A stretch of DNA of 23,737 nucleotides from a virus (taxonomy: Duplodnaviria > Heunggongvirae > Uroviricota > Caudoviricetes), in the IMG/VR virus record IMGVR_UViG_2740892036_000009, positions 1 through 23,737 of that record; one strand, 5' to 3'. The position numbers were made by a program, and so were the translations under genes. Position 1 is the stretch's first letter; every line of letters begins with the position of its first letter. The notes beneath the pieces are model-generated. The model searched no databases. It was not told the DNA's origin and saw only the letters and a list, made by a program, of their open reading frames with translations. This document shows positions 1 through 20,168 of this stretch, one piece after another.

Positions 1-996
1 TTATGGACGCATTATGGACATTCCTGACACCGGGTTAAGAGTCACAGCATCTTGTAAGAAATCCGGTGCAAAGTGTGCGTAGGTCATAGTTTGCTGAATG
101 TTAGAATGACCCAGGATGCGCTGCAATGTGATTATGTTACCTCCATTCATTATAAAATGTGTGGCAAATGTATGCCTCAAAACATGTACTGCTTGTCCGT
201 CAGGTAAATCGGGTTTTACTTCCCTGAGAGCGTTACGCACTTTGTAGTAACTGGCATTAAAAAGCCTGCCTGAATTTTTGGTCTTGATCCGTTTAATCAG
301 GTCCTGCGAAACGGGAATTGTCCTGCGTTTTCCGTTTTTAGTTTTCATAAACGTAACCATCTGGTTAATGATGTGTTCAGCTTTTAAATTAGATACTTCA
401 CTCCAGCGTCCACCAGTAGAAAGGCAGACCAGAGTTGCATTTAATTCATCACCATCAAGCATGGATAACAGCCGCGTAATCTCTTCACTGGACAAAAAAG
501 CCATTTCCGTAACAGCTTCACGTAACCGTTTAATCTCACGGAACGGGTTGTGAGAGTGGTATTCACCGGCGTCAATTAACTTGGTGAACATCCCGCTCAT
601 TATTGCCAGATGTCGATTTACGCTGGCTGGTTTCAGACCATCGTTCATCATTACAACGCGATAATCAGTTATCGTTTTCTTTGTTAGCTGGTCAGCTCTG
701 GACACTCCCATTTCTGCAAATTTGGCGATTATTGTCGTTAAACGCCCCCGTTCAATATCTCCACGCTCATGTGATTTTCCGTGATATATCCACCATCTGC
801 CTAACAACTCTGTAAGAGTTCGGCGGTCGGCTGGTTTCTCCAACCACTCTTTGTTGTGGTAGTTAACCAGTACATGACGTTCGAATGCTTGAGCTTCACC
901 TTTAGTTTTAAATTTCCGCCTGATACGTTTTCCATCTGCACCCTGCGGTCTGACGTCCACTTCATAACGACCATCATCGAGCTTTTTAATAGACAT
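1..996 (-). CDS. int: tyrosine-recombinase integrase (P2 Int-like), 331 aa
   Basis: ATG at 996-994 preceded by GGAGGG SD; C-terminal catalytic signature HVLRHTFATHF ... MTYAH (H-x-x-R ... Y); position next to repressor C as in P2; stop codon is at window position 1-3. Confidence 0.85.
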   Translation of the reverse strand: MSIKKLDDGRYEVDVRPQGADGKRIRRKFKTKGEAQAFERHVLVNYHNKEWLEKPADRRTLTELLGRWWIYHGKSHERGDIERGRLTTIIAKFAEMGVSRADQLTKKTITDYRVVMMNDGLKPASVNRHLAIMSGMFTKLIDAGEYHSHNPFREIKRLREAVTEMAFLSSEEITRLLSMLDGDELNATLVCLSTGGRWSEVSNLKAEHIINQMVTFMKTKNGKRRTIPVSQDLIKRIKTKNSGRLFNASYYKVRNALREVKPDLPDGQAVHVLRHTFATHFIMNGGNIITLQRILGHSNIQQTMTYAHFAPDFLQDAVTLNPVSGMSIMRP

Positions 997-2035: not shown

Positions 2036-2532
2036 CAGTGATGACGCTCAATCTCGTTGAAAAACAGCCAGCAACTATGCGCCGGATAATTGGTAAGCAT
2101 CTGGCCGTCCCTCGCTGGCAGGAGACATGCGATTATTATAATCAGATGATGGAACGCGAACGGCTAACGGTTTGCTTCCATGCTCAGTTAAAACAGCGTC
2201 ACGCAACGATGTGTTTTGAAGAAATGAACGACGTCGAACGTGAACGACTGGTATGTGCAATTGATGAATTGCGTGGTGCATTCTCAAAACGCCGTCAGGT
2301 TGGCGCAAGTGAGTATGCATATATTAGTTTTTTAACAGTCAGTCAGCGTCGTACTTTATTTATGCATGCCGGATTGACTGAAAAAGAATTCAACCAGCCA
2401 TACTGGCGAATTAATGAAGAGTCATGTTACTGGCGTGATGCTTTATTCCGTGCATTACGTGAATTATTCAGCCTGTTTGAGTATGCACCGACAATTCTGA
2501 CGTCGGTTAAACCAGAGCAATATCTGCATTAA
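2032..2532 (+). CDS. B: replication protein B-like (helicase-loader-type early gene), 166 aa
   Basis: Position between cox and A as in P2; 166 aa equals the P2 B length as I recall it; ATG 2032 has GGAGG 8 nt upstream (track start 2026 is too close to the SD). Confidence 0.55.
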   Translation: MTVMTLNLVEKQPATMRRIIGKHLAVPRWQETCDYYNQMMERERLTVCFHAQLKQRHATMCFEEMNDVERERLVCAIDELRGAFSKRRQVGASEYAYISFLTVSQRRTLFMHAGLTEKEFNQPYWRINEESCYWRDALFRALRELFSLFEYAPTILTSVKPEQYLH

Positions 2533-2595
2533 ATAATTAACCAGAGTTTTTAACGCACTTAATCGTGCGGGGCTTCTTTTTGCCTGGAGAAAGTC

Positions 2596-2820
2596 ATGCA
2601 TATAGTTTCTGAAAATCAGTGCGGTAAATACGCATTACTGCTGCAACAGGCCAGAACCGAAGCACAGGCCGATGCAGCGACGCGCTTTTCTTCTCATCTT
2701 GACGCCATGATTCGCCACATCACAAAGGCGGAGTTATCCCGCGTGGAGATAGTCGAGCTGCTCAGTCAGGAGTCGGAAAAATTTCACAATATCGGATTGT
2801 CTCGCGGGGAGGTGCTTTGA
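2596..2820 (+). CDS. hypothetical early protein (74 aa)
   Basis: ATG with GGAGAAAG SD; stop overlaps next start; in early operon. Confidence 0.45.
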
Positions 2821-3122
2821 TGTCCTGTTCTCGTTCAATTGTATTACTGAACAATGCATTAAAAATCTCCGTTATGAAAAATGGCGATTTGTCTCTTATT
2901 CAACTTAGGCTTGATAAAGAAAAACACGAAATAACTGAATCTGTTATCGCGATTTATCAGAACGAATTAAACCTCCTGTCTGATGTGGTCAATTTACTTG
3001 TGAAACGCGCTGTATTTCACAAGCAAATTTCCTCCGTAGATGAACTGACAAAAGTAACGGCTGAAATTGCCAGCTATTGCGCTGATGAATTTAAGAAACT
3101 GAACGACAAAAGGAGCTGGTAA
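2820..3122 (+). CDS. hypothetical protein (100 aa), AT-rich moron-like early gene
   Basis: ATG 2820 with GGGAGG SD 5-6 nt upstream; markedly lower GC than its neighbours; no recognisable motif. Confidence 0.45.
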   Translation: MSCSRSIVLLNNALKISVMKNGDLSLIQLRLDKEKHEITESVIAIYQNELNLLSDVVNLLVKRAVFHKQISSVDELTKVTAEIASYCADEFKKLNDKRSW

Positions 3123-3346
3123 TGCCGGACAACGTGGATTTTATTCAGGAACAACAGGCTGAATTACTGGAGCGCCAGATTAACGCGGCAAGGGTAAAGC
3201 ATTGCGGTGTTTCTGCGCTGGTTTGCGAAGAGTGTGACGCGCCAATACCTGCTGCCCGTCGTGCGGCTTATCCGTCAGCCACGCGTTGTGTTTCCTGCCA
3301 GTCAGTCTTTGAAGCAAAAAACAAACATTACCGGAGAACGGCATGA
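3122..3346 (+). CDS. TraR/DksA-family C4 zinc-finger protein (74 aa)
   Basis: CEEC-(x17)-CVSC spacing typical of TraR-type zinc finger; AAGGAG SD; ATG overlaps previous stop (TAATG). Confidence 0.65.
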   Translation: MPDNVDFIQEQQAELLERQINAARVKHCGVSALVCEECDAPIPAARRAAYPSATRCVSCQSVFEAKNKHYRRTA

Positions 3347-3618
3347 GTATTCGTATTGAAATTGGCGAACGTTATGTCGTTACCAGTGACAGCTTTCAGT
3401 TTATTCTCCACGAGAAAAAGAGAGCTGAAAGCGGTAAAAACGCCGGTCAGGAATGGCTGGCGGTGGTTGGTTATTACCCGAAATTAAGCCAGCTCGTTTC
3501 CGGCCTGATGCATCACGATATTCTGACCGGAAGCGCAAAGTCTTTTGCTGATTTAAACGCGCAGGTTGAGCAACTCAGCAGGCGTTGTTCAGAGGCTTTT
3601 GGCTCATATGGCCGTTAA
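3343..3618 (+). CDS. hypothetical early protein (91 aa), immediately upstream of A
   Basis: GGAGA SD, ATGA overlap with previous gene; conserved position before A. Confidence 0.45.
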   Translation: MSIRIEIGERYVVTSDSFQFILHEKKRAESGKNAGQEWLAVVGYYPKLSQLVSGLMHHDILTGSAKSFADLNAQVEQLSRRCSEAFGSYGR

Positions 3619-5884
3619 AGCCTCCGGGCGTTTTGTCCCTCCGTCAGCATTTGCCGCAGGCACCGGTAAGGCGTTTATCGGTGCTTATGCATGGAACGCG
3701 CCACGCGAGGCCGTCGGGCGCGAAAGACCCCTTACACGTGACGAGATGCGTCAGGTGCAAGGTGTTTTATCCACGATTAACCGCCTGCCTTACTTTTTGC
3801 GCTCGCTGTTTACTTCACGCTATGACTACATCCGGCGCAATAAAAGCCCGGTGCACGGGTTTTATTTCCTCACATCCACTTTTCAGCGTCGTTTATGGCC
3901 GCGCATTGAGCGTGTGAATCAGCGCCATGAAATGAACACCGACGCGTCGTTGCTGTTTATGGCAGAGCGCGACCAGTATGCGCGCCTGCCGGGGATGAAT
4001 GACAAGGAGCTGAAAAAGTTTGCTGCCCGTATCTCATCGCAGCTTTTCATGATGTATGAGGAACTCTGCGATGCCTGGGTTGATGCACATGGCGAAAAAG
4101 AATCGCTGTTTACGGATGAGGCGCAGGCTCACCTCTATGGTCATGTTGCTGGCGCTGCACGTGCTTTCAATATTTTCCCGCTTTACTGGAAAAAATACCG
4201 TAAAGGGCAGATGACCACGAGGCAGGCATATTCTGCCATTGCCCGCCTGTTTAACGATGAGTGGTGGACTCATCAGCTTAAAGGCCAGCGTATGCGCTGG
4301 CATGAGGCGTTACTGATTGCTGTCGGGGAGGTCAATAAAGACCGTTCTCCTTATGCCAGTAAACATGCCATTCGTGATGTGCGTGCGCGCCGCCAGGCAA
4401 ATCTGGAATTTCTTAAATCGTGTGACCTTGAAAACAAGGAAACCGGCGAGCGCATCGACCTTATCAGTAAGGTGATGGGCAGTATTTCTAATCCAGAAAT
4501 TCGCCGGATGGAGCTGATGAACACCATCGCCGGTATTGAGCGTTACGCCGCCGCAGAGGGTGATGTGGGGATGTTTATCACGCTGACCGCGCCGTCAAAG
4601 TATCACCCGACACGTCAGGTCAGAAAAGGCGAAAGTAAAACCGTCCAGCTAAATCACGGCTGGAACGATGAGGCATTTAATCCAAAGGATGCGCAGCGTT
4701 ATCTCTGCCATATCTGGAGCCTGATGCGCACGGCATTCAAGGATAATGATTTACAGGTCTACGGTTTGCGTGTCGTCGAGCCACACCACGACGGAACGCC
4801 GCACTGGCATATGATGCTTTTTTGTAATCCACGCCAGCGTAACCAGATTATTGAAATCATGCGTCGCTACGCGCTCAAAGAGGATGGAGACGAAAGAGGA
4901 GCCGCGCGAAACCGTTTTCAGGCAAAACATCTTAACCGGGGCGGTGCTGCGGGGTATATCGCGAAATACATCTCAAAAAACATCGATGGCTATGCACTGG
5001 ATGGTCAGCTCGATAACGATACCGGCAGGCCGCTGAAAGATACTGCTGCGGCTGTTACCGCATGGGCGTCAACGTGGCGCATTCCGCAATTTAAAACGGT
5101 TGGTCTGCCGACAATGGGGGCTTACCGTGAACTACGCAAATTGCCTCGCGGCGTCAGCATTGCTGATGAGTTTGACGAGCGCGTCGAGGCTGCACGCGCC
5201 GCTGCAGACAGTGGTGATTTTGCGTTGTATATCAGCGCGCAGGGCGGGGCAAATGTCCCGCGCGATTGTCAGACTGTCAGGGTCGCCCGTAGCCCGTCGG
5301 ATGACGTTAACGAGTACGAGGAAGAAGTCGAGAGAGTGGTCGGCATTTACGCGCCGCATCTCGGCGCGCGTCATATTCATATCACCAGAACGACGGACTG
5401 GCGCATTGTGCCGAAAGTTCCGGTCGTTGAGCCTTTGACTTTAAAAAGCGGCATCGCCGCGCCTCGGAGTCCTGTCAATAACTGTGGAAAGCTCACCGGT
5501 GGTGATACTTCGTTACCGGCTCCCACACCTTCTGAGCACGCCGCAGCAGTGCTTAATCTGGTTGATGACGGTATTATCGAATGGAATGAGCCGGAGGTCG
5601 TGAAGGCGCTCAGGGGCGCATTAAAACACGGGCTGAGAACGCCAAACCGTCAGCAAAGAAACGGAAGCACGTTAAAACCACATGAAATTGCACCATCGGC
5701 CAGACTGAGCCGGTCGGAACGATTGCAAATCACCCGTATCCGCGTTGACCTTGCTCAGAATGGAATCTTGCCCCAGCGATGGGAGCTTGAGGCGCTGGCG
5801 CGTGGGGCAACCGTAAATTATGACGGGAAACAATTCACGTATCTGGCTGCTGATGAGTGGCCGGGATTCTCAACAAACATATAA
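3608..5884 (+). CDS. A: replication initiation endonuclease A (rolling-circle nickase), 758 aa
   Basis: Protein from MAVKASGRFVPP... is near-identical to my recollection of P2 gpA, including the HxH-type motif region (PHWHMMLF) and active-site Tyr region (YIAKYISKNIDGY); ATG 3608 with GAGG upstream. Confidence 0.85.
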   Translation: MAVKASGRFVPPSAFAAGTGKAFIGAYAWNAPREAVGRERPLTRDEMRQVQGVLSTINRLPYFLRSLFTSRYDYIRRNKSPVHGFYFLTSTFQRRLWPRIERVNQRHEMNTDASLLFMAERDQYARLPGMNDKELKKFAARISSQLFMMYEELCDAWVDAHGEKESLFTDEAQAHLYGHVAGAARAFNIFPLYWKKYRKGQMTTRQAYSAIARLFNDEWWTHQLKGQRMRWHEALLIAVGEVNKDRSPYASKHAIRDVRARRQANLEFLKSCDLENKETGERIDLISKVMGSISNPEIRRMELMNTIAGIERYAAAEGDVGMFITLTAPSKYHPTRQVRKGESKTVQLNHGWNDEAFNPKDAQRYLCHIWSLMRTAFKDNDLQVYGLRVVEPHHDGTPHWHMMLFCNPRQRNQIIEIMRRYALKEDGDERGAARNRFQAKHLNRGGAAGYIAKYISKNIDGYALDGQLDNDTGRPLKDTAAAVTAWASTWRIPQFKTVGLPTMGAYRELRKLPRGVSIADEFDERVEAARAAADSGDFALYISAQGGANVPRDCQTVRVARSPSDDVNEYEEEVERVVGIYAPHLGARHIHITRTTDWRIVPKVPVVEPLTLKSGIAAPRSPVNNCGKLTGGDTSLPAPTPSEHAAAVLNLVDDGIIEWNEPEVVKALRGALKHGLRTPNRQQRNGSTLKPHEIAPSARLSRSERLQITRIRVDLAQNGILPQRWELEALARGATVNYDGKQFTYLAADEWPGFSTNI

Positions 5885-5987
5885 AAATGATTGAAATGGT
5901 TGATTTTGCTTCCACTTGATGGTTGGTATCAGCAACTGATGGATCATGCGGAACTGCGTGGCAATCTTGCTTTGGAAGCATGTCATT

Positions 5988-6206
5988 ATGACTAATGCAT
6001 ACATTACTAGCTATGCGTCCGGTTCCGCCATTGTACTCGTGCAAGAGTCTCCGGCTGATGGCTATTGTTTACAAATTATGGTCAAAGAGAATCTGACCCT
6101 CTACGAGTTGGTCGGAGGGACTGAGATCGTCAGTGATAACTGCAGCCGTATGGGAGAAATAAATAATCCCAACCGTCCATATTTCTACCTTCACGCGTGC
6201 CCATAA
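5988..6206 (+). CDS. possible small ORF (72 aa) downstream of A (orf91 position); weak call
   Basis: ATG 5988 with GGAAG ~10 nt upstream; no recognisable motif; may be non-coding. Confidence 0.25.
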   Translation: MTNAYITSYASGSAIVLVQESPADGYCLQIMVKENLTLYELVGGTEIVSDNCSRMGEINNPNRPYFYLHACP

Positions 6207-6223
6207 TCTGTCACCACGTTGAC

Positions 6224-6271
6224 CATAGAAAACCCCGCCGACGCTGAAACTCGCTTTCAGTGCTGGCGGGG
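6224..6271 (-). terminator. rho-independent terminator for the minus-strand RT gene (GC stem CCCCGCCG...GGCGGGG followed by TTTTCT on the minus strand)
   Basis: Hairpin 6233-6271 read from sequence; T-rich run lies 3' of the stem only on the minus strand, downstream of the RT stop. Confidence 0.5.
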
Positions 6272-6371
6272 TTGAACAACGAGCTTGCGAGGCGTTAGGG
6301 ATGTCGAAATTTCATATGACTGTTCGCTTTAATGCTTAACGAAGTCATGTTGAGTTAATAACATTGTTTCG

Positions 6372-7916
6372 TTAAGCGCTGTGTTCCTTGTCGAATAAGT
6401 TCACTTCTTCTGGTGTAATATCAGTATCCATTTCTTCGAATGCATCTAAATCCACAATTTTTGTTTTTTTCAAAATTGATAGTATTTTCTGTTTGTTTTT
6501 ATTTTTGGCTGAACCCGGAATCCACTCTACATCCCACAGGCCATCAATGGTAAATGTTTTTTTTCCCTTGAGTTCATCATTTATGCGTTGACATAGGGCT
6601 GTTTTGTAATCGCCTTCCCATTGTGTGTGTATCTTCCCTTGAACTCGTTGAAACCAAATATCTAACATTTCAGTATTTGGTTGTTTACCTAGTTTACAAT
6701 GAAGTTGTTGTAACTTGCCAAATTTGAGTTCATCGTCGTCATAAAGGAAGGTCAAGAGTTTTGCGAAAATAGCCATTCCCACTGGGTAGGTGGTTGGGTT
6801 TTTAGCCATGATGCTTGAAATAATTCCAAGCATTGCATCTAGTTGATGCCCACTATTTGTGATCTTTTTCTTCCTAAATAATTTCCGCAAGAAATCATTT
6901 AAATATCTGACTGTAATTTTGGAGTTTTGATGTTTTAAAGAAAATAAATATATTGCATACAACATTTTCTGTAGGGAGTTGAACGACCCTTCTATAATAT
7001 ATTCTTTTTTTGCTGATTTAAGGGAGTGAAGAATGATGTCGTCATGTAGTTCTGTTTTTCTTGAGTTTAAATCAAGCCCAAACTCACCTAAGACCTCAAC
7101 CAAACACTTTGAGATTTTGTCCAAATCATCTTTACTGCTTGAAAATATTCGATAATCATCTCTGTAGCGAACTACTTTGTAATCCGTTATTTTTTGCTCT
7201 TCGGTTTTTTTTCTTAGCTGTAAATCAATTTCGCCTAAAATTAATTCGGCAAATGTATCCATCAACGTACTACCCAATGGTATTCCGTTTGTCTGATTAC
7301 TCATCATCATCTGGATATGAGTGTCAATCAATCGTCCTGGGTTATTGTTATTTTCTTTCTTTTTGGCCTCTTCTTTTGAGATGAATACCCATTCAAAGCT
7401 ATGAGTGTAAATAGAAGGGTAGAAGTTTGAAATATCTGTGCTGAACATGAACTCATACTCAAGAGCCAATGAAAGACTTTTTTGTTCAAAATCTTCCCAC
7501 CAGTTTAAAACAGATGCAGCTACGTTTGAGGTGTTCTTTTTGCTCACTGGGGTACTTGAGCATAAAAAAAGATCATTAGACTCAAACTCTCTAAATTTAT
7601 TCCTTATAGCATTCCAGTTGGAAGAGGATGTAATAAGTTTACAAAAATACACGTAGTACAGAGGATTAATTAGTGTTATTCGTCGCCAGCTATATAAGCC
7701 ATCTTTGCTGACTAAAACCTCGTAATTTATATTCTTCCCCATCAATGACTTGGAGTCAGGTTGGAAGTTGATTTTACCTTCATCTATCGCGGAGTTGATT
7801 TCTTCAAGCAAGGAAGAAAAATCGACATAACTGGGTAGCTCCAGAGTAGTGTATGAATCATGCTGCAGAAAATACTTAAGCGCTCTACCAGTAGTTAATT
7901 CATAAATCTTTTTCAT
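6372..7916 (-). CDS. reverse transcriptase, Abi-type (Abi-P2/AbiK-like standalone RT), ~514 aa from ATG 7916
   Basis: RT motifs in order: FMFSTDISNFYPSI (motif A Asp), GIPLGSTLMDTFAELIL (motif B), VRYRDDYRIF (YxDD motif C), LDLNSRKTEL (motif D); ~200-aa C-terminal extension; very AT-rich; occupies the tin/old cargo position of P2. Confidence 0.7.
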   Translation of the reverse strand: MKKIYELTTGRALKYFLQHDSYTTLELPSYVDFSSLLEEINSAIDEGKINFQPDSKSLMGKNINYEVLVSKDGLYSWRRITLINPLYYVYFCKLITSSSNWNAIRNKFREFESNDLFLCSSTPVSKKNTSNVAASVLNWWEDFEQKSLSLALEYEFMFSTDISNFYPSIYTHSFEWVFISKEEAKKKENNNNPGRLIDTHIQMMMSNQTNGIPLGSTLMDTFAELILGEIDLQLRKKTEEQKITDYKVVRYRDDYRIFSSSKDDLDKISKCLVEVLGEFGLDLNSRKTELHDDIILHSLKSAKKEYIIEGSFNSLQKMLYAIYLFSLKHQNSKITVRYLNDFLRKLFRKKKITNSGHQLDAMLGIISSIMAKNPTTYPVGMAIFAKLLTFLYDDDELKFGKLQQLHCKLGKQPNTEMLDIWFQRVQGKIHTQWEGDYKTALCQRINDELKGKKTFTIDGLWDVEWIPGSAKNKNKQKILSILKKTKIVDLDAFEEMDTDITPEEVNLFDKEHSA

Positions 7917-8121
7917 AATTAGTGATTTCTTCTTAAGTTGCGCACAAATAACTACCTGTTTTCTATCATGATAACGATGCGAATGCGAGCAATTCAGGAA
8001 GTGCATTACTCTGCATCGAAGCGCACGCAAGTCAGAGAACAATAACTGCCTGGCGACATCAGGACTGGCGCGCTAGTTGAGTGGTCATGCAACTGCATTA
8101 AAACCGCCCCATGAAGCGGGC

Positions 8122-8140
8122 GGGCGAGGCGGGGAAAGCA
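8122..8140 (+). other. cos: cos site: 19-nt P2-type cohesive-end sequence GGCGAGGCGGGGAAAGCAC
   Basis: Exact 19-mer as I recall it for the P2 cohesive end, followed by CTGCGCGCT; located between A-side cargo and Q as expected for a P2 prophage; recalled from memory, not searched. Confidence 0.55.
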
Positions 8141-8365
8141 CTGCGCGCTCCATTAACGACCATTGCATAATACTATTAGCCTATGAATCGAGTCATGAGA
8201 TGTTATCTTTACGATTCAGGCGAGTGCTTTCGTTACGATGAGTTGGTTTAAGCACACTATCTGCACAAAAAATAATCTGTTGAAGCGATTCATCATTCCT
8301 AACGCTCTAGAGTCTTAAATAAAAATATGTAAAATGCGTAAAATTTTTTGAATTATGGATCAGCT

Positions 8366-9448
8366 ATGCTTGGAACTTCATCACAAAGAGCTATTTCAGT
8401 ACAACATGTTGATTTAAATGTAAAGTGTTGGGTCGTTAGACCTGGGATTAAGTATAGATATTTTGCAGACTTCCTTGAACGCAATATGGTTGCTACTGCT
8501 CACTTGGATAGGTTAAGTCCAGATCAAATTGACTTTAATGATGAAATTAACCATGAAAATATTAATCAAAAGGTTGATGGGTTAGATACTATTGGTTCAA
8601 GAAATATTCATACCCAAATTGAAAATTTCCTCATAGATATGCAGGTCGGTGATGTTGTTTTCACTTTGTCAGGTGATATGGTTGTTCCTGGAGTTATTGC
8701 ATCTTCCGCGTATTTTGAGCGTGAATGTTTAGGTAATAATGAAGGGTTTCATGTAAGACGTAGAGTCACATGGGGAGAGCCAGTTCGCAGACGAGAGATT
8801 CCATTAGCTCTTCAGAAATCGTTTACTGCATACCAGACCGTATTCTCTTTGGGCGGGAAGTCAGAAGAAGTACTGCATTGGTTAATGTCATTCTTTATAA
8901 CGGATAATATTTTCTGTACTAGCTTAAGAGTCGAGCAAGCAGAAGCCATTCGGCATCATACTCTTAAGCAGCTGGCTGAGCTGGTCGATAGAGTGCAGGT
9001 ACTTGCGCTATTAATTGGCGAAGAGTTTGATGGCGAGTATACAAACGAAGTTGTTCAGTTTGAGATGGAAAGACTTTCTAATAATGGAGAGTTATCCTTG
9101 ACTGCTCAACAAATGTTGATGTCTCCGGGGGATGTTTGGCTACAATTTAAAACAAATAATAGAAAGGCCGGAATTGCGTTTATGTTAATTATGGGGGCCA
9201 TTTTTAATCATGATGTAGCCTTCGCTTCAACGGTTGATAATCGTATAAGTGAGGAACTTCGATCTCATATTGAAGGGAAAAAAGAGGTTGCAATGGATGG
9301 ATTAAACTTTGATAGAGTTTCTCAAGTTCTAGAGTTGCGTTTAAAAAGACAAAATAGAGGCTTTGTTTCTGCTCGTCCAACGAACCGTGAGATCGGACAG
9401 GGGATCAATTTCCCTGAAGATGGTGATGCGAGGCATGCGAGTGACTAA
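8366..9448 (+). CDS. hypothetical protein, 360 aa from first in-frame ATG (track start 8348 is TTG); cargo gene 1 of a two-gene operon
   Basis: Long uninterrupted ORF in a low-GC island; no catalytic or nucleotide-binding motif recognisable by eye; stop is 2 nt before the next ATG. Confidence 0.55.
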   Translation: MLGTSSQRAISVQHVDLNVKCWVVRPGIKYRYFADFLERNMVATAHLDRLSPDQIDFNDEINHENINQKVDGLDTIGSRNIHTQIENFLIDMQVGDVVFTLSGDMVVPGVIASSAYFERECLGNNEGFHVRRRVTWGEPVRRREIPLALQKSFTAYQTVFSLGGKSEEVLHWLMSFFITDNIFCTSLRVEQAEAIRHHTLKQLAELVDRVQVLALLIGEEFDGEYTNEVVQFEMERLSNNGELSLTAQQMLMSPGDVWLQFKTNNRKAGIAFMLIMGAIFNHDVAFASTVDNRISEELRSHIEGKKEVAMDGLNFDRVSQVLELRLKRQNRGFVSARPTNREIGQGINFPEDGDARHASD

Positions 9449-9450
9449 CT

Positions 9451-10140
9451 ATGAACTTTGAATTTGTAAAAGAACACTGGCTGATAATAGGCATGCTATT
9501 CATAGCATGTCTATTATTAATTTTAAAATTCAAAGATATTTACAGAACACACGATCAGTTTAATAACGTCGTGATGTCATTGTGCGCTGTTTTGACACTT
9601 GTGTGGGGAGGATATACTTTTGATGTTTTGCACCAAAGGGATAAGGCAGAAGCTGATCTTATAGAGTTAAGAAATAGAATTAGAAATACAGAATCGACAT
9701 TTTTTAATGTTGACGTTAATGTTGTTAAAATCGATGATGTGTTTTATATAAAGCCTATTGTAACTATTAGGAATAACAGTAATGAGCGAATTTATGTGAA
9801 GCTTAATAACAAGTCCCTTGCTGTTAGTCGTGTTTTATCGGCCGGTGCAAAGCAAGTCGCTACGGAAGTTTTTTATCCAAATTATTATGAGGAGTTGGCT
9901 GTTCTTAATGAAGAAAGTAGCTCGCAAGGAAAAGCTAAAAATATACCTTTATATGATATATCCGTTCCTATCTCTGCCGAAAGACGCTTGAACTATCTTG
10001 TTTCGACAAAAGAAAAAGGAATGTATTATGTAACATTTAGTGCTGAGGCAATGAACGAAGATGGCTCGCCTGTTTCTAAATACATAAATGGGAAAAAATC
10101 TATATGGTTTTCTTCTTCATATATTGAAGTTAAAGATTGA
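9451..10140 (+). CDS. hypothetical membrane protein, 229 aa, two predicted N-terminal TM helices plus soluble C-terminal domain; cargo gene 2
   Basis: Hydrophobic stretches WLIIGMLFIACLLLIL and VVMSLCAVLTLVWGGYTF; tightly coupled to gene 1; low GC. Confidence 0.55.
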   Translation: MNFEFVKEHWLIIGMLFIACLLLILKFKDIYRTHDQFNNVVMSLCAVLTLVWGGYTFDVLHQRDKAEADLIELRNRIRNTESTFFNVDVNVVKIDDVFYIKPIVTIRNNSNERIYVKLNNKSLAVSRVLSAGAKQVATEVFYPNYYEELAVLNEESSSQGKAKNIPLYDISVPISAERRLNYLVSTKEKGMYYVTFSAEAMNEDGSPVSKYINGKKSIWFSSSYIEVKD

Positions 10141-10207
10141 ATTTCTATTAAACCATATAGTAATTGAAGGTGTTGGGGGTTAATCTTGCCTGGATTGCAT
10201 AGAATCA

Positions 10208-10225
10208 CGCCGTCTGGAGACGGCG
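10208..10225. terminator. inverted repeat CGCCGTCT-GG-AGACGGCG between convergent cargo operon and Q; probable terminator hairpin
   Basis: Perfect 8-bp arms read from sequence, 10 nt beyond the Q stop; no strong U-tract on either strand. Confidence 0.4.
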
Positions 10226-10235
10226 CTAAGGGTAC

Positions 10236-11264
10236 TTAATTAGATTCTAGACTGTAATCTTTAAAGCGGATGACCTCCTGACCGAGCCAGCCGTTTATCT
10301 CGCGGATCCTGTCCTGTAACGGGATAAGCTCATTGCGGACAAAGACCTTTGCCACTTTCTCAATATCACCCAGCGACCCGACGTTCTCCGGCTTGCCCCC
10401 CATCAACTGAAAGGGGATGCGGTGCGCGTCCAGCAGGTCAGCGGCGCTGGCTTTTTTGATATTAAAAAAATCGTCCTTCGTTGCCACTTCACTGAGCGGG
10501 ATAATTTTAATGCCGTCGGCTTTCCCCTGTGGGGCATAGAGAAACAGATTTTTAAAGTTATTGCGGCCTTTCGACTTAACCATGTTTTCGCGAAGCATTT
10601 CGATATCGTTGCGGTCCTGCACGGCATCGGTGACGTACATGATGTATCCGGCATGTGCGCCGTTTTCATAATACTTGCGGCGGAACAGCGTGGCCGACTC
10701 ATTCAGCCAGGCAGAGTTAAGGGCGCTGAGATATTCCGGCAGGCCGTACAGCTCCTGATTGATATCCGGCTCCAGCAGGTGAAATACGGAGCCGGGCGCG
10801 AAGGCTGTCGGTTCGTTGAAGGACGGCACCCACCAGTAAACATCCTCTTCCACCCCACGGCGGGTATATTTTGCCGGTGAGGTTTCCAGTCTGATGACCT
10901 TACCGGTGGTGCTGTAACGCTTTTCCAGAAACGCATTGCCGAACACCAGAAAATCCAGCACAAAGCGGCTGAAATCCTGCTGGGAAAGCCACGGGTGCGG
11001 AATAAACGTTGAAGCCAGAATATTACGTTTGACGTAAATCGGTGAGCTGTGATGTACGGCAGCACGCAGGCTTTTTGCCAGACCGGTAAAGCTGACCGGT
11101 GGCTCATACCATCTGCCGTTACTGATGCACTCGACGTAATCCAGAATGTCACGGCGGTCGAGTACCGGCACCGGTTCACCAAAGGTGAATGCCTCCATTT
11201 TCGGGGCGCTGGCGGTCATTTTTTTTGCCGCTGGTCGCGGTGTTTTCCCTTTTTTCTTGCTCAT
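10236..11264 (-). CDS. Q: portal protein Q, 342 aa
   Basis: Protein matches P2 gpQ-type portal in length and sequence as recalled; start ATG overlaps P stop (ATGA). Confidence 0.85.
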   Translation of the reverse strand: MSKKKGKTPRPAAKKMTASAPKMEAFTFGEPVPVLDRRDILDYVECISNGRWYEPPVSFTGLAKSLRAAVHHSSPIYVKRNILASTFIPHPWLSQQDFSRFVLDFLVFGNAFLEKRYSTTGKVIRLETSPAKYTRRGVEEDVYWWVPSFNEPTAFAPGSVFHLLEPDINQELYGLPEYLSALNSAWLNESATLFRRKYYENGAHAGYIMYVTDAVQDRNDIEMLRENMVKSKGRNNFKNLFLYAPQGKADGIKIIPLSEVATKDDFFNIKKASAADLLDAHRIPFQLMGGKPENVGSLGDIEKVAKVFVRNELIPLQDRIREINGWLGQEVIRFKDYSLESN

Positions 11265-18965: not shown

Positions 18966-19416
18966 GTTTAAGCGTTTTGAAGACCGGATGACCGGACTGA
19001 TTGAGTCGCTGTCACCGTCAGGGCGTCGGCGACTGGCGGTAGATATTGCGAAGAAACTGCGCCAGCGCCAGCAGCAGCGAATTAAATTACAAAAAGGCCC
19101 AGATGGTACGCCGTATGTACCGAGAAAAAACCAGCCAGTGCGAAATAAGAAAGGCCGGATAAAGCGGGAAATGTTTGTGAAATTACGCACTAACCGGTTT
19201 ATGAAAGCAACAGGTAGCGAGAGTGCGGCGGTGGTGGAGTTTGCCAGCGGAGTGCAACGAATTGCGCGAGTACATCAATTAGGGCTTAAGGATAAGCCGG
19301 GGCGTAATAGTGCTGTGGTGGAATATCCTGTTCGTGAGTTATTTGGTTTTGACAAGGAATCTATACAATTGATAGAAAGGGAGTTATTAGTGATTCTATC
19401 GAAAGATGTTATATGA
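18958..19416 (+). CDS. S: tail completion protein S, 152 aa; 3' ~100 nt are AT-rich and look replaced
   Basis: P2 gpS-like N-terminal 115 aa; ATG overlaps R stop; C-terminal codons share the low GC of the downstream cargo. Confidence 0.75.
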   Translation: MNEFKRFEDRMTGLIESLSPSGRRRLAVDIAKKLRQRQQQRIKLQKGPDGTPYVPRKNQPVRNKKGRIKREMFVKLRTNRFMKATGSESAAVVEFASGVQRIARVHQLGLKDKPGRNSAVVEYPVRELFGFDKESIQLIERELLVILSKDVI

Positions 19417-20168
19417 GACGGGTGTTTATGGATGAAAAGTTTTCTATTTTGAGAAAAAGAGTAAAGCACTCTCAAAAGAAAGTTATGGATTGTATTATTG
19501 TTGACCATAATGCTGATATATGTGTGTTATGCGGGAGTTCTGACGATATTACTCGTGAGCACATTATTCCTCAGTGGGCCTTTGAGTCAAATACTGAAAA
19601 ATCTTTAATTAATAAAAAGAATAATCAGTCAACTCATTACATTAAAGCCACTGTACCAGCATGCAGAGTGTGCAATTCTGATTTGCTGGGAGTGTTTGAG
19701 TATAACCTGAAGAAATTTCTTACGGAAAAGAGGGGAGAGGAGTTAACAGATTATGAGTATGATTGCATCATATGGTGGTTGCAATACATGGGTTTTAAGT
19801 TGCAATTAATGGATTTGCGGAACCGCTTTCTCAGGTATAAAGGTGGTGATTATATCCCGTTCCTTGCAAACTTTCCGGTTGCAATGTTTTGGGGGAATGT
19901 CGATACGACGCCGGGGGATGTCTTCAGGATTATACGAAAATCGCGACGCAATCTGATGTCGAAATGGAAGGATAAAAAACATAATTCTTTGATGGTTTTT
20001 GAAACATCAAACAAGAGTTTTCATTTCTTTCATAAGGTTGATGAATTTATTTTTATTGAAATGCCTCAGGTTAAGAAGGCGTTTTTCTTCTTTTTTAATA
20101 AAGAATTTGACAGCCATGATTTAGCTCATGAGGAGTGTATGAAGATTATAGAGAAGTGCTACAACTAA
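19413..20168 (+). CDS. HNH-nuclease-motif protein, 251 aa, AT-rich cargo between S and V (alternative start ATG 19428)
   Basis: CVLCG-x7-EHIIPQ ... CRVCNSDL = CxxC ... H ... CxxC(N) HNH-type signature in the N-terminal third; low GC; sits at the variable S-V junction (orf30 position in P2). Confidence 0.55.
   Translation: MRRVFMDEKFSILRKRVKHSQKKVMDCIIVDHNADICVLCGSSDDITREHIIPQWAFESNTEKSLINKKNNQSTHYIKATVPACRVCNSDLLGVFEYNLKKFLTEKRGEELTDYEYDCIIWWLQYMGFKLQLMDLRNRFLRYKGGDYIPFLANFPVAMFWGNVDTTPGDVFRIIRKSRRNLMSKWKDKKHNSLMVFETSNKSFHFFHKVDEFIFIEMPQVKKAFFFFFNKEFDSHDLAHEECMKIIEKCYN

Follow-up and report, generated by a model that had tools for sequence, protein, structure and literature searches.

The reverse transcriptase gene between gene A and cos of a P2-like prophage is an intact EC58-type copy of the known defence polymerase gene abi-P2

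The reverse transcriptase (RT) encoded between gene A and cos in the window, a stretch of 23,737 nucleotides carrying a P2-like prophage, is a known defence polymerase, an intact copy of Abi-P2. We are confident that this abi-P2 gene (EC58 type) constitutes a single-gene abortive-infection/exclusion system, which would act by the mechanism set out below. The original prediction had seen here a standalone Abi-type RT (Abi-P2/AbiK-like) and left its clade open. That observation was correct but ordinary, because Abi-P2 has already been described and structurally solved: it is an RT-like enzyme with which P2-type prophages, carrying its gene beside their packaging site, block other phages. A profile search against RT clades settles the clade: the PADLOC AbiP2 profile matched with E 1.9e-159 and 529.6 bits (protein residues 1-512 on positions 4-487 of 489), the next-best profiles being Drt6 (159.7 bits, E 2.9e-47), Drt4 (E 5.2e-43) and AbiK (105 bits, E 1.5e-30). 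The protein also matched PDB 7R08 with E 1.8e-255, query residues 1-508 aligning with 32-540 of the chain. It is 99.0% identical (509/514 residues) to P2-EC58 ORF544 and 74.5-75% identical (383/514) to P2-EC30 ORF570, the founding members of the Abi-P2 family. Judged by these matches, the clade is Abi-P2, a Class 1 UG/Abi RT. Other assignments fell well short. The NCBIfam Drt4 match reached 121.6 bits, far under its cut-off of 450, the retron St85 RT match 35.1 bits against 235 (E 8.6e-9) and Drt3a 33.9 against 200. The protein does not belong to the ncRNA-templated RT groups (retrons, DRT2/UG2, DRT9/UG28, DRT3), which scored far below AbiP2 in PADLOC. A group II intron RT/maturase was likewise rejected: TIGR04416 reached 42 bits where its cut-off is 300, with coverage of the palm only, and Rfam yielded no intron RNA family.

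The coding sequence lies at 6372..7916 on the minus strand, as supported by the AbiP2, 7R08 and P2-EC58 ORF544 matches and by pN/pS. The predicted frame indeed exists: 514 aa plus stop from the ATG at 7916 (MKKIYELT...), a stop-free run of 514 codons compared with at most 169 for the longest in 1000 same-base shuffles. It is as AT-rich as had been stated, with 35.2% GC versus 53.5% in gene A and 52.5% in the portal gene (backbone ~53%). Gene A ends at 5884 (Phage_GPA match, E 9.8e-123). The P2 homology of the window breaks off at 5875 and is back at 8094, so that the gene, flanked by replication gene A on one side and P2 cos on the other, replaces P2's own content of this interval (orf91, tin and old), in agreement with the earlier suggestion that it stands in for tin/old. 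In this P2-like prophage the variable interval from A to cos is thus taken up by an AT-rich gene, whose neighbours differ among loci. The right border of this cargo slot is the cos region (8094..8141, plus strand), made up of a conserved cosR-side flank, a hairpin at 8104-8123 and the 19-nt P2 cohesive end GGCGAGGCGGGGAAAGCAC at 8123-8141; it is identical to P2 1-19 and to the P2 right end. Of the limits proposed previously for the region, 5885-8121, the first directly follows gene A, whereas the second falls two bases short of cos (8123).

The mechanical ORF extends past ATG 7916 to a TTG at 8042. We rejected this start (556 aa) as well as ATG 8006, the start 30 codons upstream used in the 2006 annotation of P2-EC58 (544 aa). 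The reasons are that the N-terminal extensions of 30-31 residues in the two annotations, EC58 and EC30, have no sequence relationship to each other, the 75% identity running from MKK onward; that residues 1-31 of 7R08 are invisible in the structure (PMC9508834); that both the PGAP call and the PADLOC profile match begin at MKK; and that a purine-rich, Shine-Dalgarno (SD)-like stretch precedes the MKK ATG in three variants. Comparison with EC30 therefore lends the 2006 annotation no support. On this evidence the annotated extension is not real and translation is assigned to ATG 7916, which in practice is the start to use, rather than that of the longer 2006 ORF or of the TTG ORF. The three variants of our flank comparisons are those of the window, EC30 and Entomohabitans; a search for related loci with the RT protein alone yielded three loci, one of them (Entomohabitans) complete.

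The domain structure agrees with this assignment. RT motifs A, B, C (YRDD) and D, predicted to occur in the correct order, were located at residues 158-169 (FSTDISNFYPSI), 208-224 (QTNGIPLGSTLMDTFAE), 248-259 (VVRYRDDYRIFS, YRDD at 251-254) and 280-290 (GLDLNSRKTEL), giving palm and fingers of the Y(R/V)DD kind. Pfam RVT_1 matched residues 144-291 with 40.9 bits (gathering cut-off 29.6, E 2.4e-10), and the RT domain is thereby statistically supported. The RT-like polymerase domain (fingers and palm, motifs A-D) is assigned to residues 1-292 (7041..7916, minus strand) from the RVT_1 match, the motif positions and the 7R08 alignment, following the domain description in PMC9508834. The YRDD codons (7155..7166, minus strand), which carry the motif C catalytic aspartates, are identical in all three variants. 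Since residue 32 of 7R08 aligns with residue 1 here, the priming Tyr61 corresponds to Tyr30 (LELPSYVDF; codon at 7827..7829, minus strand), and this tyrosine of the fingers loop is kept in the window, EC30 and Entomohabitans variants. The Y61F variant of the crystallised Abi-P2 was unable to polymerise DNA (PMC9508834), and deletion of the YRDD region abolished T5 exclusion by P2-EC30, according to the account of Odegrip 2006 given in PMC8632793. The C-terminal extension, estimated earlier at ~200 aa, comprises the 222 residues after motif D. Residues 293-514 (6375..7040, minus strand) correspond to the helical (alpha-repeat) domain that takes the place of a thumb, with a role described in PMC9508834; residues 293-508 align with the 7R08 helical domain at ~75% identity and with no large gaps. 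The alignment thus predicts a protein lacking a thumb, with the helical domain fused to the RT domain instead.

On the upstream side, alignments with the corresponding regions of EC30 and Entomohabitans assign 7917..8093 (minus strand) to the cassette's 5′ leader and putative promoter. This region includes the SD-like AAGAAGAAA immediately 5′ of the RT ATG and a block shared with EC30, TCATGATAGAAAACA (7959-7973), possibly an extended -10 element. A sigma-70 consensus scan between the RT start and cos found no site, and the promoter is therefore inferred only from the EC30-conserved block. On the downstream side, a short hairpin (ATGTT..AACAT; 6347..6364, minus strand) directly past the RT stop is common to all three variants despite saturated synonymous sites. 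It appears to be the cassette's own terminator in a weakened form: its EC30 counterpart has a 9-bp stem followed by TTTTTT. Further downstream, folding and copies in other P2-like prophages define an element at 6212..6298 (no strand assigned) with a hairpin at 6222-6275. On the minus strand, its stem and the TTTTCT that follows read as an intrinsic terminator of RT transcription; the element also terminates the rightward early operon. Copies 82-90% identical occupy the same position in other P2-like prophages, and the element recurs in hotspots with unrelated cargo.

These flanks bear on the idea that the protein is a templated RT copying a neighbouring ncRNA (6207-6371 or 7917-8121), in the manner of retrons, DRT2, DRT9 and DRT10. 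Use of an adjacent ncRNA is known from many defence RTs (PMC9226505, PMC12039810), the RT gene has non-coding stretches of 165 nt and 205 nt on its two sides, and the part of Odegrip 2006 relayed in PMC8632793 mentions 'reverse transcriptase activity' of the EC30 enzyme. The downstream 165 nt, moreover, fold better than shuffles (z -2.88), but this is mostly due to the 6222-6275 stem, a terminator hairpin that is also seen beside unrelated cargo. The upstream fold is nothing unusual (z +0.11), and ~48 of the 205 upstream bases are cos backbone. Rfam gave no match on the flanks at E<=1 and none at gathering score. The EC30-type and Entomohabitans loci have no structured flank in common, and the flanks of the three variants diverge save for the ribosome-binding-like stretch and the terminator hairpins; Rfam, folding and the three-variant alignments thus revealed no conserved structured RNA in 6207-6371 or 7917-8121. 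The protein itself falls in Class 1 by its AbiP2 score rather than in an ncRNA-using group, the retron St85 RT match being far below cut-off. Mestre et al. place Abi-P2 among the stand-alone Class 1 UG/Abi RTs (PMC9226505), consistent with the standalone character claimed at the outset, and recombinant Abi-P2 makes DNA in vitro with dNTPs alone, template-free (PMC9508834). We rejected a partner ncRNA, Rfam being empty in both modes and the folds and alignments giving only terminators, and regard a templated RT as highly improbable. The original prediction had called the partner RNA unidentified. It is true that none was found, but the premise needs correcting: for a protein-primed, template-independent polymerase a partner RNA is not expected, and in practical terms a search for one is unnecessary.

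We give just as little credence to the view that Abi-P2 is part of a multi-gene system, with ORF85 or the DUF8426 module (8366..10140) as sensor or effector. ORF85, the 86-aa product of the early-operon tail (5946..6206, plus strand; phrog_13272, E 2.8e-54; ORF85 of P2-EC58), is not called by PGAP, and every full cassette (63-64 genomes) has it alongside the EC58-type RT. The DUF8426 cassette adjoins and is AT-rich too, and a 2021 review considered the need for other locus elements in Abi-P2 defence unclear (PMC8632793). However, the EC30-type locus has no ORF85, the RT there following gene A directly, and prophages carrying other cargo have, at this position, small ORFs that share 59-60% identity with its central 32 residues. 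We consequently rejected ORF85 as a dedicated RT partner; from these comparisons it is judged to travel with the EC58-type cassette without being RT-specific. As for the DUF8426 cassette, it occurs in seven genomes with other A-to-cos cargo and together with Abi-P2 in none of the 5426 complete E. coli genomes, whereas in most EC58-type loci the cos-to-Q interval is empty or, in others, holds retron Ec48 (pro147) or a hypothetical protein (HKUOPY1). The classification of AbiP2 as stand-alone by Mestre et al. points the same way (PMC9226505). Less probable still is that the RT gene came in by horizontal transfer and is now decaying and without function. Its composition is foreign and prophage cargo is non-essential, but the frame is full length, all catalytic and priming residues are intact, and the EC58-type cassette is 99-100% identical across 64 of 5426 complete E. 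coli genomes, P2-EC58 and phage pro147, in varied hosts. In comparisons with two variants, each 75% identical, pN was 0.15-0.17 versus a pS of 0.78-0.94 (pN/pS ~0.16-0.20, with synonymous sites saturated). The RT gene is intact and under strong purifying selection.

Taken as a single-gene exclusion system, Abi-P2 would have a promoter of its own beside cos, be transcribed leftward in the lysogen and protect it against T5-like phages. What was read from this allele is its family, its intact frame, the conserved catalytic and priming residues, the purifying selection acting on it, its place in the prophage and the lack of conserved flanking RNA; trimers, protein priming, template independence and T5 exclusion are carried over by homology from the 75%-identical EC30 homologue. 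The P2-EC30 enzyme is a trimeric, protein-primed, template-independent DNA polymerase; priming and template independence are in vitro results, and the authors did not assess in vivo requirements (PMC9508834). P2-EC30 ORF570 excludes phage T5 (Odegrip 2006, as summarised in PMC8632793). By homology to this enzyme, the window protein would form trimers, which might in turn stack as hexamers. Synthesis would be primed by the Tyr30 hydroxyl (Tyr61 in 7R08 numbering), and palm Asp161 (motif A) together with Asp253/Asp254 (YRDD) would add dNTPs template-free, while the C-terminal helical domain, replacing both thumb and template strand, would hold the nascent strand. The product would be random-sequence ssDNA still covalently bound to the enzyme. 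How its synthesis stops a phage is most likely, by analogy with DRT4 (PMC12783706), a matter of exonucleases and phage proteins: host exonucleases would normally clear the ssDNA, and a phage DNA-binding/recombination protein would stabilise the product or be sequestered by it, leading to growth arrest.

On the other side of cos, up to portal gene Q, there is a second, independent cargo slot. Its content is a conserved, uncharacterised two-gene module. In the DUF8426 protein encoded by the first gene, the N-terminal ~170 residues bear a weak resemblance to the modified-base readers PUA, YTH and VcaM4I. Foldseek comparison of the DUF8426 model with the PDB gave weak matches only (best E 3.1e-3, none <=1e-3), and the PUA/YTH-like assignment is therefore a lead, not a result. 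The product of the second gene has 229 aa, and its N-terminus is hydrophobic and read as membrane-spanning. Set against its closest complete prophage, that of E. coli Ec-U9-2, the window shows a single difference, the swap of segment 5870-8079, and the locus is a clean case of cassette swapping either side of cos. We raise the possibility, less likely than not, that the gpA-gpQ hotspot of P2 is made up of two slots, split by cos, whose cargo exchanges independently, and that the cos-Q operon could be a new modified-nucleic-acid-sensing defence system stacked with Abi-P2.

The RT itself adds little, being another copy of a gene known since 2006 whose product had its structure solved in 2022 and which standard defence-annotation tools already catch. 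P2-EC58 ORF544 is the same gene, in the same position between gene A and cos and with the same flanks including ORF85 (99.0% DNA identity over 2281 bp), from which the window protein differs by five substitutions (S98P, N102K, G310R, G451E, T498N). P2-EC30 ORF570 (PDB 7R08; Figiel et al. 2022, PMC9508834) is 75% identical over its full length and shares identical motif A-D cores, the priming Tyr, the two-domain layout and the P2-like prophage slot. It nevertheless represents a different allele lineage, with saturated synonymous sites, and its locus, unlike the window, lacks ORF85 and has an intact terminator directly after the stop codon. In the sources cited here, published Abi-P2 phenotype and biochemistry concern the EC30 variant (PMC9508834, and PMC8632793 as far as drawn on), whereas the EC58 allele is the commoner E. 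coli lineage, the EC30 type being found in just 10-11 complete genomes versus 64. AbiK of Lactococcus lactis (PDB 7R07) is likewise a Class 1 Abi polymerase with RT-like and helical domains, tyrosine-primed template-independent ssDNA synthesis and threefold oligomers (PMC9508834). It is a distant sequence match (PADLOC E 1.5e-30 versus 1.9e-159 for AbiP2), and differs in its DNA-stabilised hexamers, in a priming Tyr44 placed elsewhere in the loop and in being plasmid-borne in a Gram-positive host. The next-best profile matches, DRT4 (UG15) and DRT6 (UG12), are also Class 1 UG/Abi defence RTs. Like Abi-P2, DRT4 makes protein-primed random ssDNA; it assembles as a dimer of trimers and acts against T5 by abortive infection (PMC12783706). 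Its priming residue, however, is Tyr125 of the palm, and it is triggered by T5 ORF55. Finally, tin/old of P2 share with the window RT the slot, the leftward orientation and the role in lysogenic-conversion exclusion (PMC9122126), although the proteins (Tin; the OLD ATPase-nuclease) and their mechanisms are unrelated.

The minus-strand ORF at 6372..7916 encodes 514 residues from the ATG of MKKIYELT, while the longest stop-free run in 1000 shuffles of its bases reached at most 169 codons. As the original prediction had it, the RT motifs stand in the correct order, A at 158-169, B at 208-224, C at 248-259 (YRDD 251-254) and D at 280-290, and Pfam RVT_1 scores 40.9 bits against a gathering score of 29.6. 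The expected C-terminal extension of about 200 residues turned out to comprise 222 residues beyond motif D, and the suspected AT-richness is evident from a GC content of 35.2% compared with 53.5% in gene A. The prediction had favored a stand-alone Abi-type RT, Abi-P2- or AbiK-like, leaving the clade open. A profile search against RT clades decided for the former: the PADLOC AbiP2 profile matched the protein end to end (E 1.9e-159, 529.6 bits), followed by Drt6 (159.7 bits), UG14 (149.9), Drt4 (145.6) and AbiK (105), and the protein fell well under every cut-off of the NCBIfam models for Drt4, Drt3b, group II intron RT, AbiA and retron RT. Sequence identity is 99.0% to the 'putative reverse transcriptase' of prophage P2-EC58 and 74.5-75% to the P2-EC30 RT; the genes of these two prophages are the founding members of Abi-P2 (PMC9508834). 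Moreover, residues 1-508 align with chain residues 32-540 of the EC30 enzyme in PDB 7R08 (E 1.8e-255). The profile, the identities to EC58 and EC30 and the structure-linked alignment therefore settle the clade as Abi-P2 of the EC58 lineage. The features named in the original prediction are all there, in the places given, and its reading of the gene is supported. The gene is an already known, structurally characterized, stand-alone defense polymerase at its canonical location.

Two longer forms of the gene, starting at TTG 8042 (the mechanical ORF) or at ATG 8006 (544 aa, the 2006 P2-EC58 annotation), were considered and rejected in favor of ATG 7916. The annotated extensions of 30-31 residues share no similarity between EC58 and EC30, and the 75% identity begins exactly at MKK. 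Residues 1-31 are not visible in the 7R08 crystal, PGAP annotates the 514-aa form, and a purine-rich stretch lies 5' of the MKK ATG in three variants. The predicted coordinates, 6372-7916, are thus the correct ones. The three variants, about 75% identical pairwise, are that of the window, the EC30 type of E. coli SC477 and a gene of Entomohabitans teleogrylli that likewise lies between gene A and portal Q in a P2-like prophage. Among them, synonymous differences are saturated (pS 0.78-0.94) and non-synonymous ones low (0.15-0.17), in the RT-like and the helical half alike. All three retain the motif cores and Tyr30, which corresponds to Tyr61 in 7R08. In the EC30 enzyme, Figiel et al. found that Y61F cannot polymerize DNA and that Y46F (Tyr15 in the window protein) matches wild-type activity (PMC9508834).

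By gene content, the window represents most of a P2-like prophage. The integrase (1..996, minus strand) is followed by the C-type repressor, cox, B and a DUF5405 protein gene, in that order, and then by replication gene A (3566..5884), the cargo, cos, a second cargo, portal Q (10236..11264, minus strand), terminase P and the capsid, lysis and tail genes. The GC content of the backbone (52-58%) falls to 34-43% over 6000-10500 and again over 19000-20000. At 8123-8141 is the P2 cohesive end GGCGAGGCGGGGAAAGCAC, which matches bases 1-19 of NC_001895 exactly. On its A side, homology to P2 is lost at 5875, in the final codons of gene A, and regained at 8094, an interval that P2 itself fills with orf91, tin and old, so that the proposed replacement of tin/old holds. 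On the Q side, homology is lost at 8149, 8 bases past the cohesive end, and regained at 10254. Among P2-like elements, conservation on the Q side likewise reaches just 8 bases beyond the 19-nt cohesive end (8123-8149), and on the A side it extends over about 29 bases including a hairpin at 8104-8123; this difference suggests that packaging depends mostly on A-side sequence. Tail genes S and V flank a third AT-rich island (39-44% GC), located where P2 has orf30. It contains a 251-aa ORF (19413-20168, plus strand) with no Pfam or PADLOC match and a single hit, to phrog_10503 (function unknown). The ORF is a further cargo gene of the moron type.

The original prediction also raised the possibility of a non-coding partner RNA in 6207-6371 or 7917-8121. 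None was seen, and we rejected the idea: Rfam returned no match at E<=1 in 5700-10400 and none at gathering score across the whole window, and neither folding nor the three-variant flank comparison offered a candidate. The upstream 205 nt (7917-8121), about 48 of which are cos backbone common to P2, fold no better than shuffles (z +0.11). The downstream 165 nt (6207-6371) do fold better (z -2.88), but this signal comes from a single long hairpin at 6222-6275 that, read on the minus strand, runs into TTTTCT and so constitutes an intrinsic terminator. The hairpin is part of an element of about 85 bp (6212-6298), in which CCCCGCC...GGCGGGG is followed by GAACAACGAGC..GCGAGGCGTTAG. Roughly forty other E. 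coli genomes have copies with 82-90% identity, which lie at the corresponding position of A-to-cos hotspots, where the rightward early operon ends. Since the cargo beside them is unrelated, the element belongs to the backbone as a terminator, or serves as a cassette joint, rather than being an RT accessory; probably it is both a shared early-operon terminator and a recombination joint for cassettes. The flanks of the three Abi-P2 variants have only two features in common, the SD-like stretch and, directly behind the stop codon, a short hairpin (ATGTT..AACAT, 6347-6364). In EC30 the hairpin is a terminator, with a 9-bp stem and TTTTTT after it; in the window this terminator has decayed. The window and EC30 further share a block, TCATGATAGAAAACA (7959-7973), possibly an extended -10 element; a consensus promoter scan called no promoter there. 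Nor is a partner RNA to be expected, given the template-independent biochemistry of the enzyme and the listing of AbiP2 by Mestre et al. among stand-alone Class 1 UG/Abi RTs (PMC9226505). ORF85 (5946..6206), which accompanies the EC58-type cassette, was likewise rejected as a part of the system, because it is missing from the EC30-type locus and because small ORFs that occupy the same position next to other cargo are 59-60% identical to its central segment. In our reading it forms the end of the early operon.

Of 5426 complete E. coli genomes, 64 carry the EC58-type cassette (5885-8149) at 99-100% identity and 10-11 carry the EC30 type, in agreement with surveys that place AbiP2 among the defense systems of the P2 gpA-gpQ hotspot (PMC9122126, PMC13586616). 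In many complete E. coli chromosomes (e.g. NZ_CP047461 and NZ_AP027754), P2 gene A starts at coordinate 1 and the cassette lies at 2269-4542, an annotation curiosity rather than biology, as these assemblies were probably rotated to a 'replication' gene by automated start-fixing software. The closest complete prophage, that of E. coli Ec-U9-2 (90% of the window covered, 98.7% identity), differs solely in segment 5870-8079, where a retron-like RT module stands in place of Abi-P2. One joint falls in the final codons of gene A and the other about 30-45 bp to the left of cos. This is a clean cassette swap, which fits the modular exchange reported in PMC13586616. Because the swap is limited to this segment, the hotspot behaves as two slots that are split by cos and exchange independently. 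In other Abi-P2 prophages the cos-to-Q slot is empty (WS3294A), or it is occupied by a hypothetical gene (in HKUOPY1) or by retron Ec48 (in phage pro147). In pro147 (3468-5362) and in E. coli EC9, E189 and E148, Abi-P2 occupies the A-to-cos slot and retron Ec48, with its RT and membrane effector, the cos-to-Q slot, so that cos has an RT-based defense on either side.

In the window, the cos-to-Q slot carries the second AT-rich cargo (8150-10253, 2.1 kb), which takes the place of P2 bases 28-210. It encodes, on the plus strand, a 360-aa protein (8366..9448), DUF8426 (PF28530) by RefSeq name, and a 229-aa protein (9451..10140) whose N-terminus is hydrophobic. Homologs of the former (38-75% identity) are spread across Enterobacterales and Pseudomonas. 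In Serratia, next to icd and away from any P2 context, a 45%-identical homolog is followed 2 bases on by a protein 43% identical to the second; therefore, the two genes form a conserved operon. Among complete E. coli genomes, 7 carry the cassette, in each case between cos and Q and with differing A-side cargo, and none has it together with Abi-P2. The DUF8426 protein weakly matches the PADLOC candidate PDC-S02 (E 2.5e-12). Its AlphaFold model (pLDDT 81.9) gave no Foldseek match at or below E 1e-3; the N-terminal ~170 residues weakly resemble the PUA-like domain of the restriction enzyme VcaM4I and YTH m6A readers (E 3e-3 and weaker), a modeled likeness that is no more than a lead. We regard the cassette as a candidate uncharacterized defense module.

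As to how Abi-P2 might act, the EC30 enzyme is bilobal, with an RT-like palm and fingers and a helical domain replacing the thumb; it forms a stable trimer able to stack as a dimer of trimers, and makes tyrosine-primed DNA from dNTPs alone, with products of ~40 nt and >100 nt (PMC9508834). For P2-EC30, Odegrip 2006 as summarized in PMC8632793 reported an exclusion of phage T5 that is lost when the YRDD region is deleted. The best current analogy for how such ssDNA stops a phage is DRT4, another Class 1 RT: ExoI keeps clearing the random ssDNA that it makes constitutively, and once a T5 DNA-end-binding protein shields that ssDNA, the cell dies (PMC12783706). By this analogy, the downstream step of Abi-P2 would most likely be DRT4-like: the host would remove the ssDNA until a phage protein shields it, and cell death would follow.
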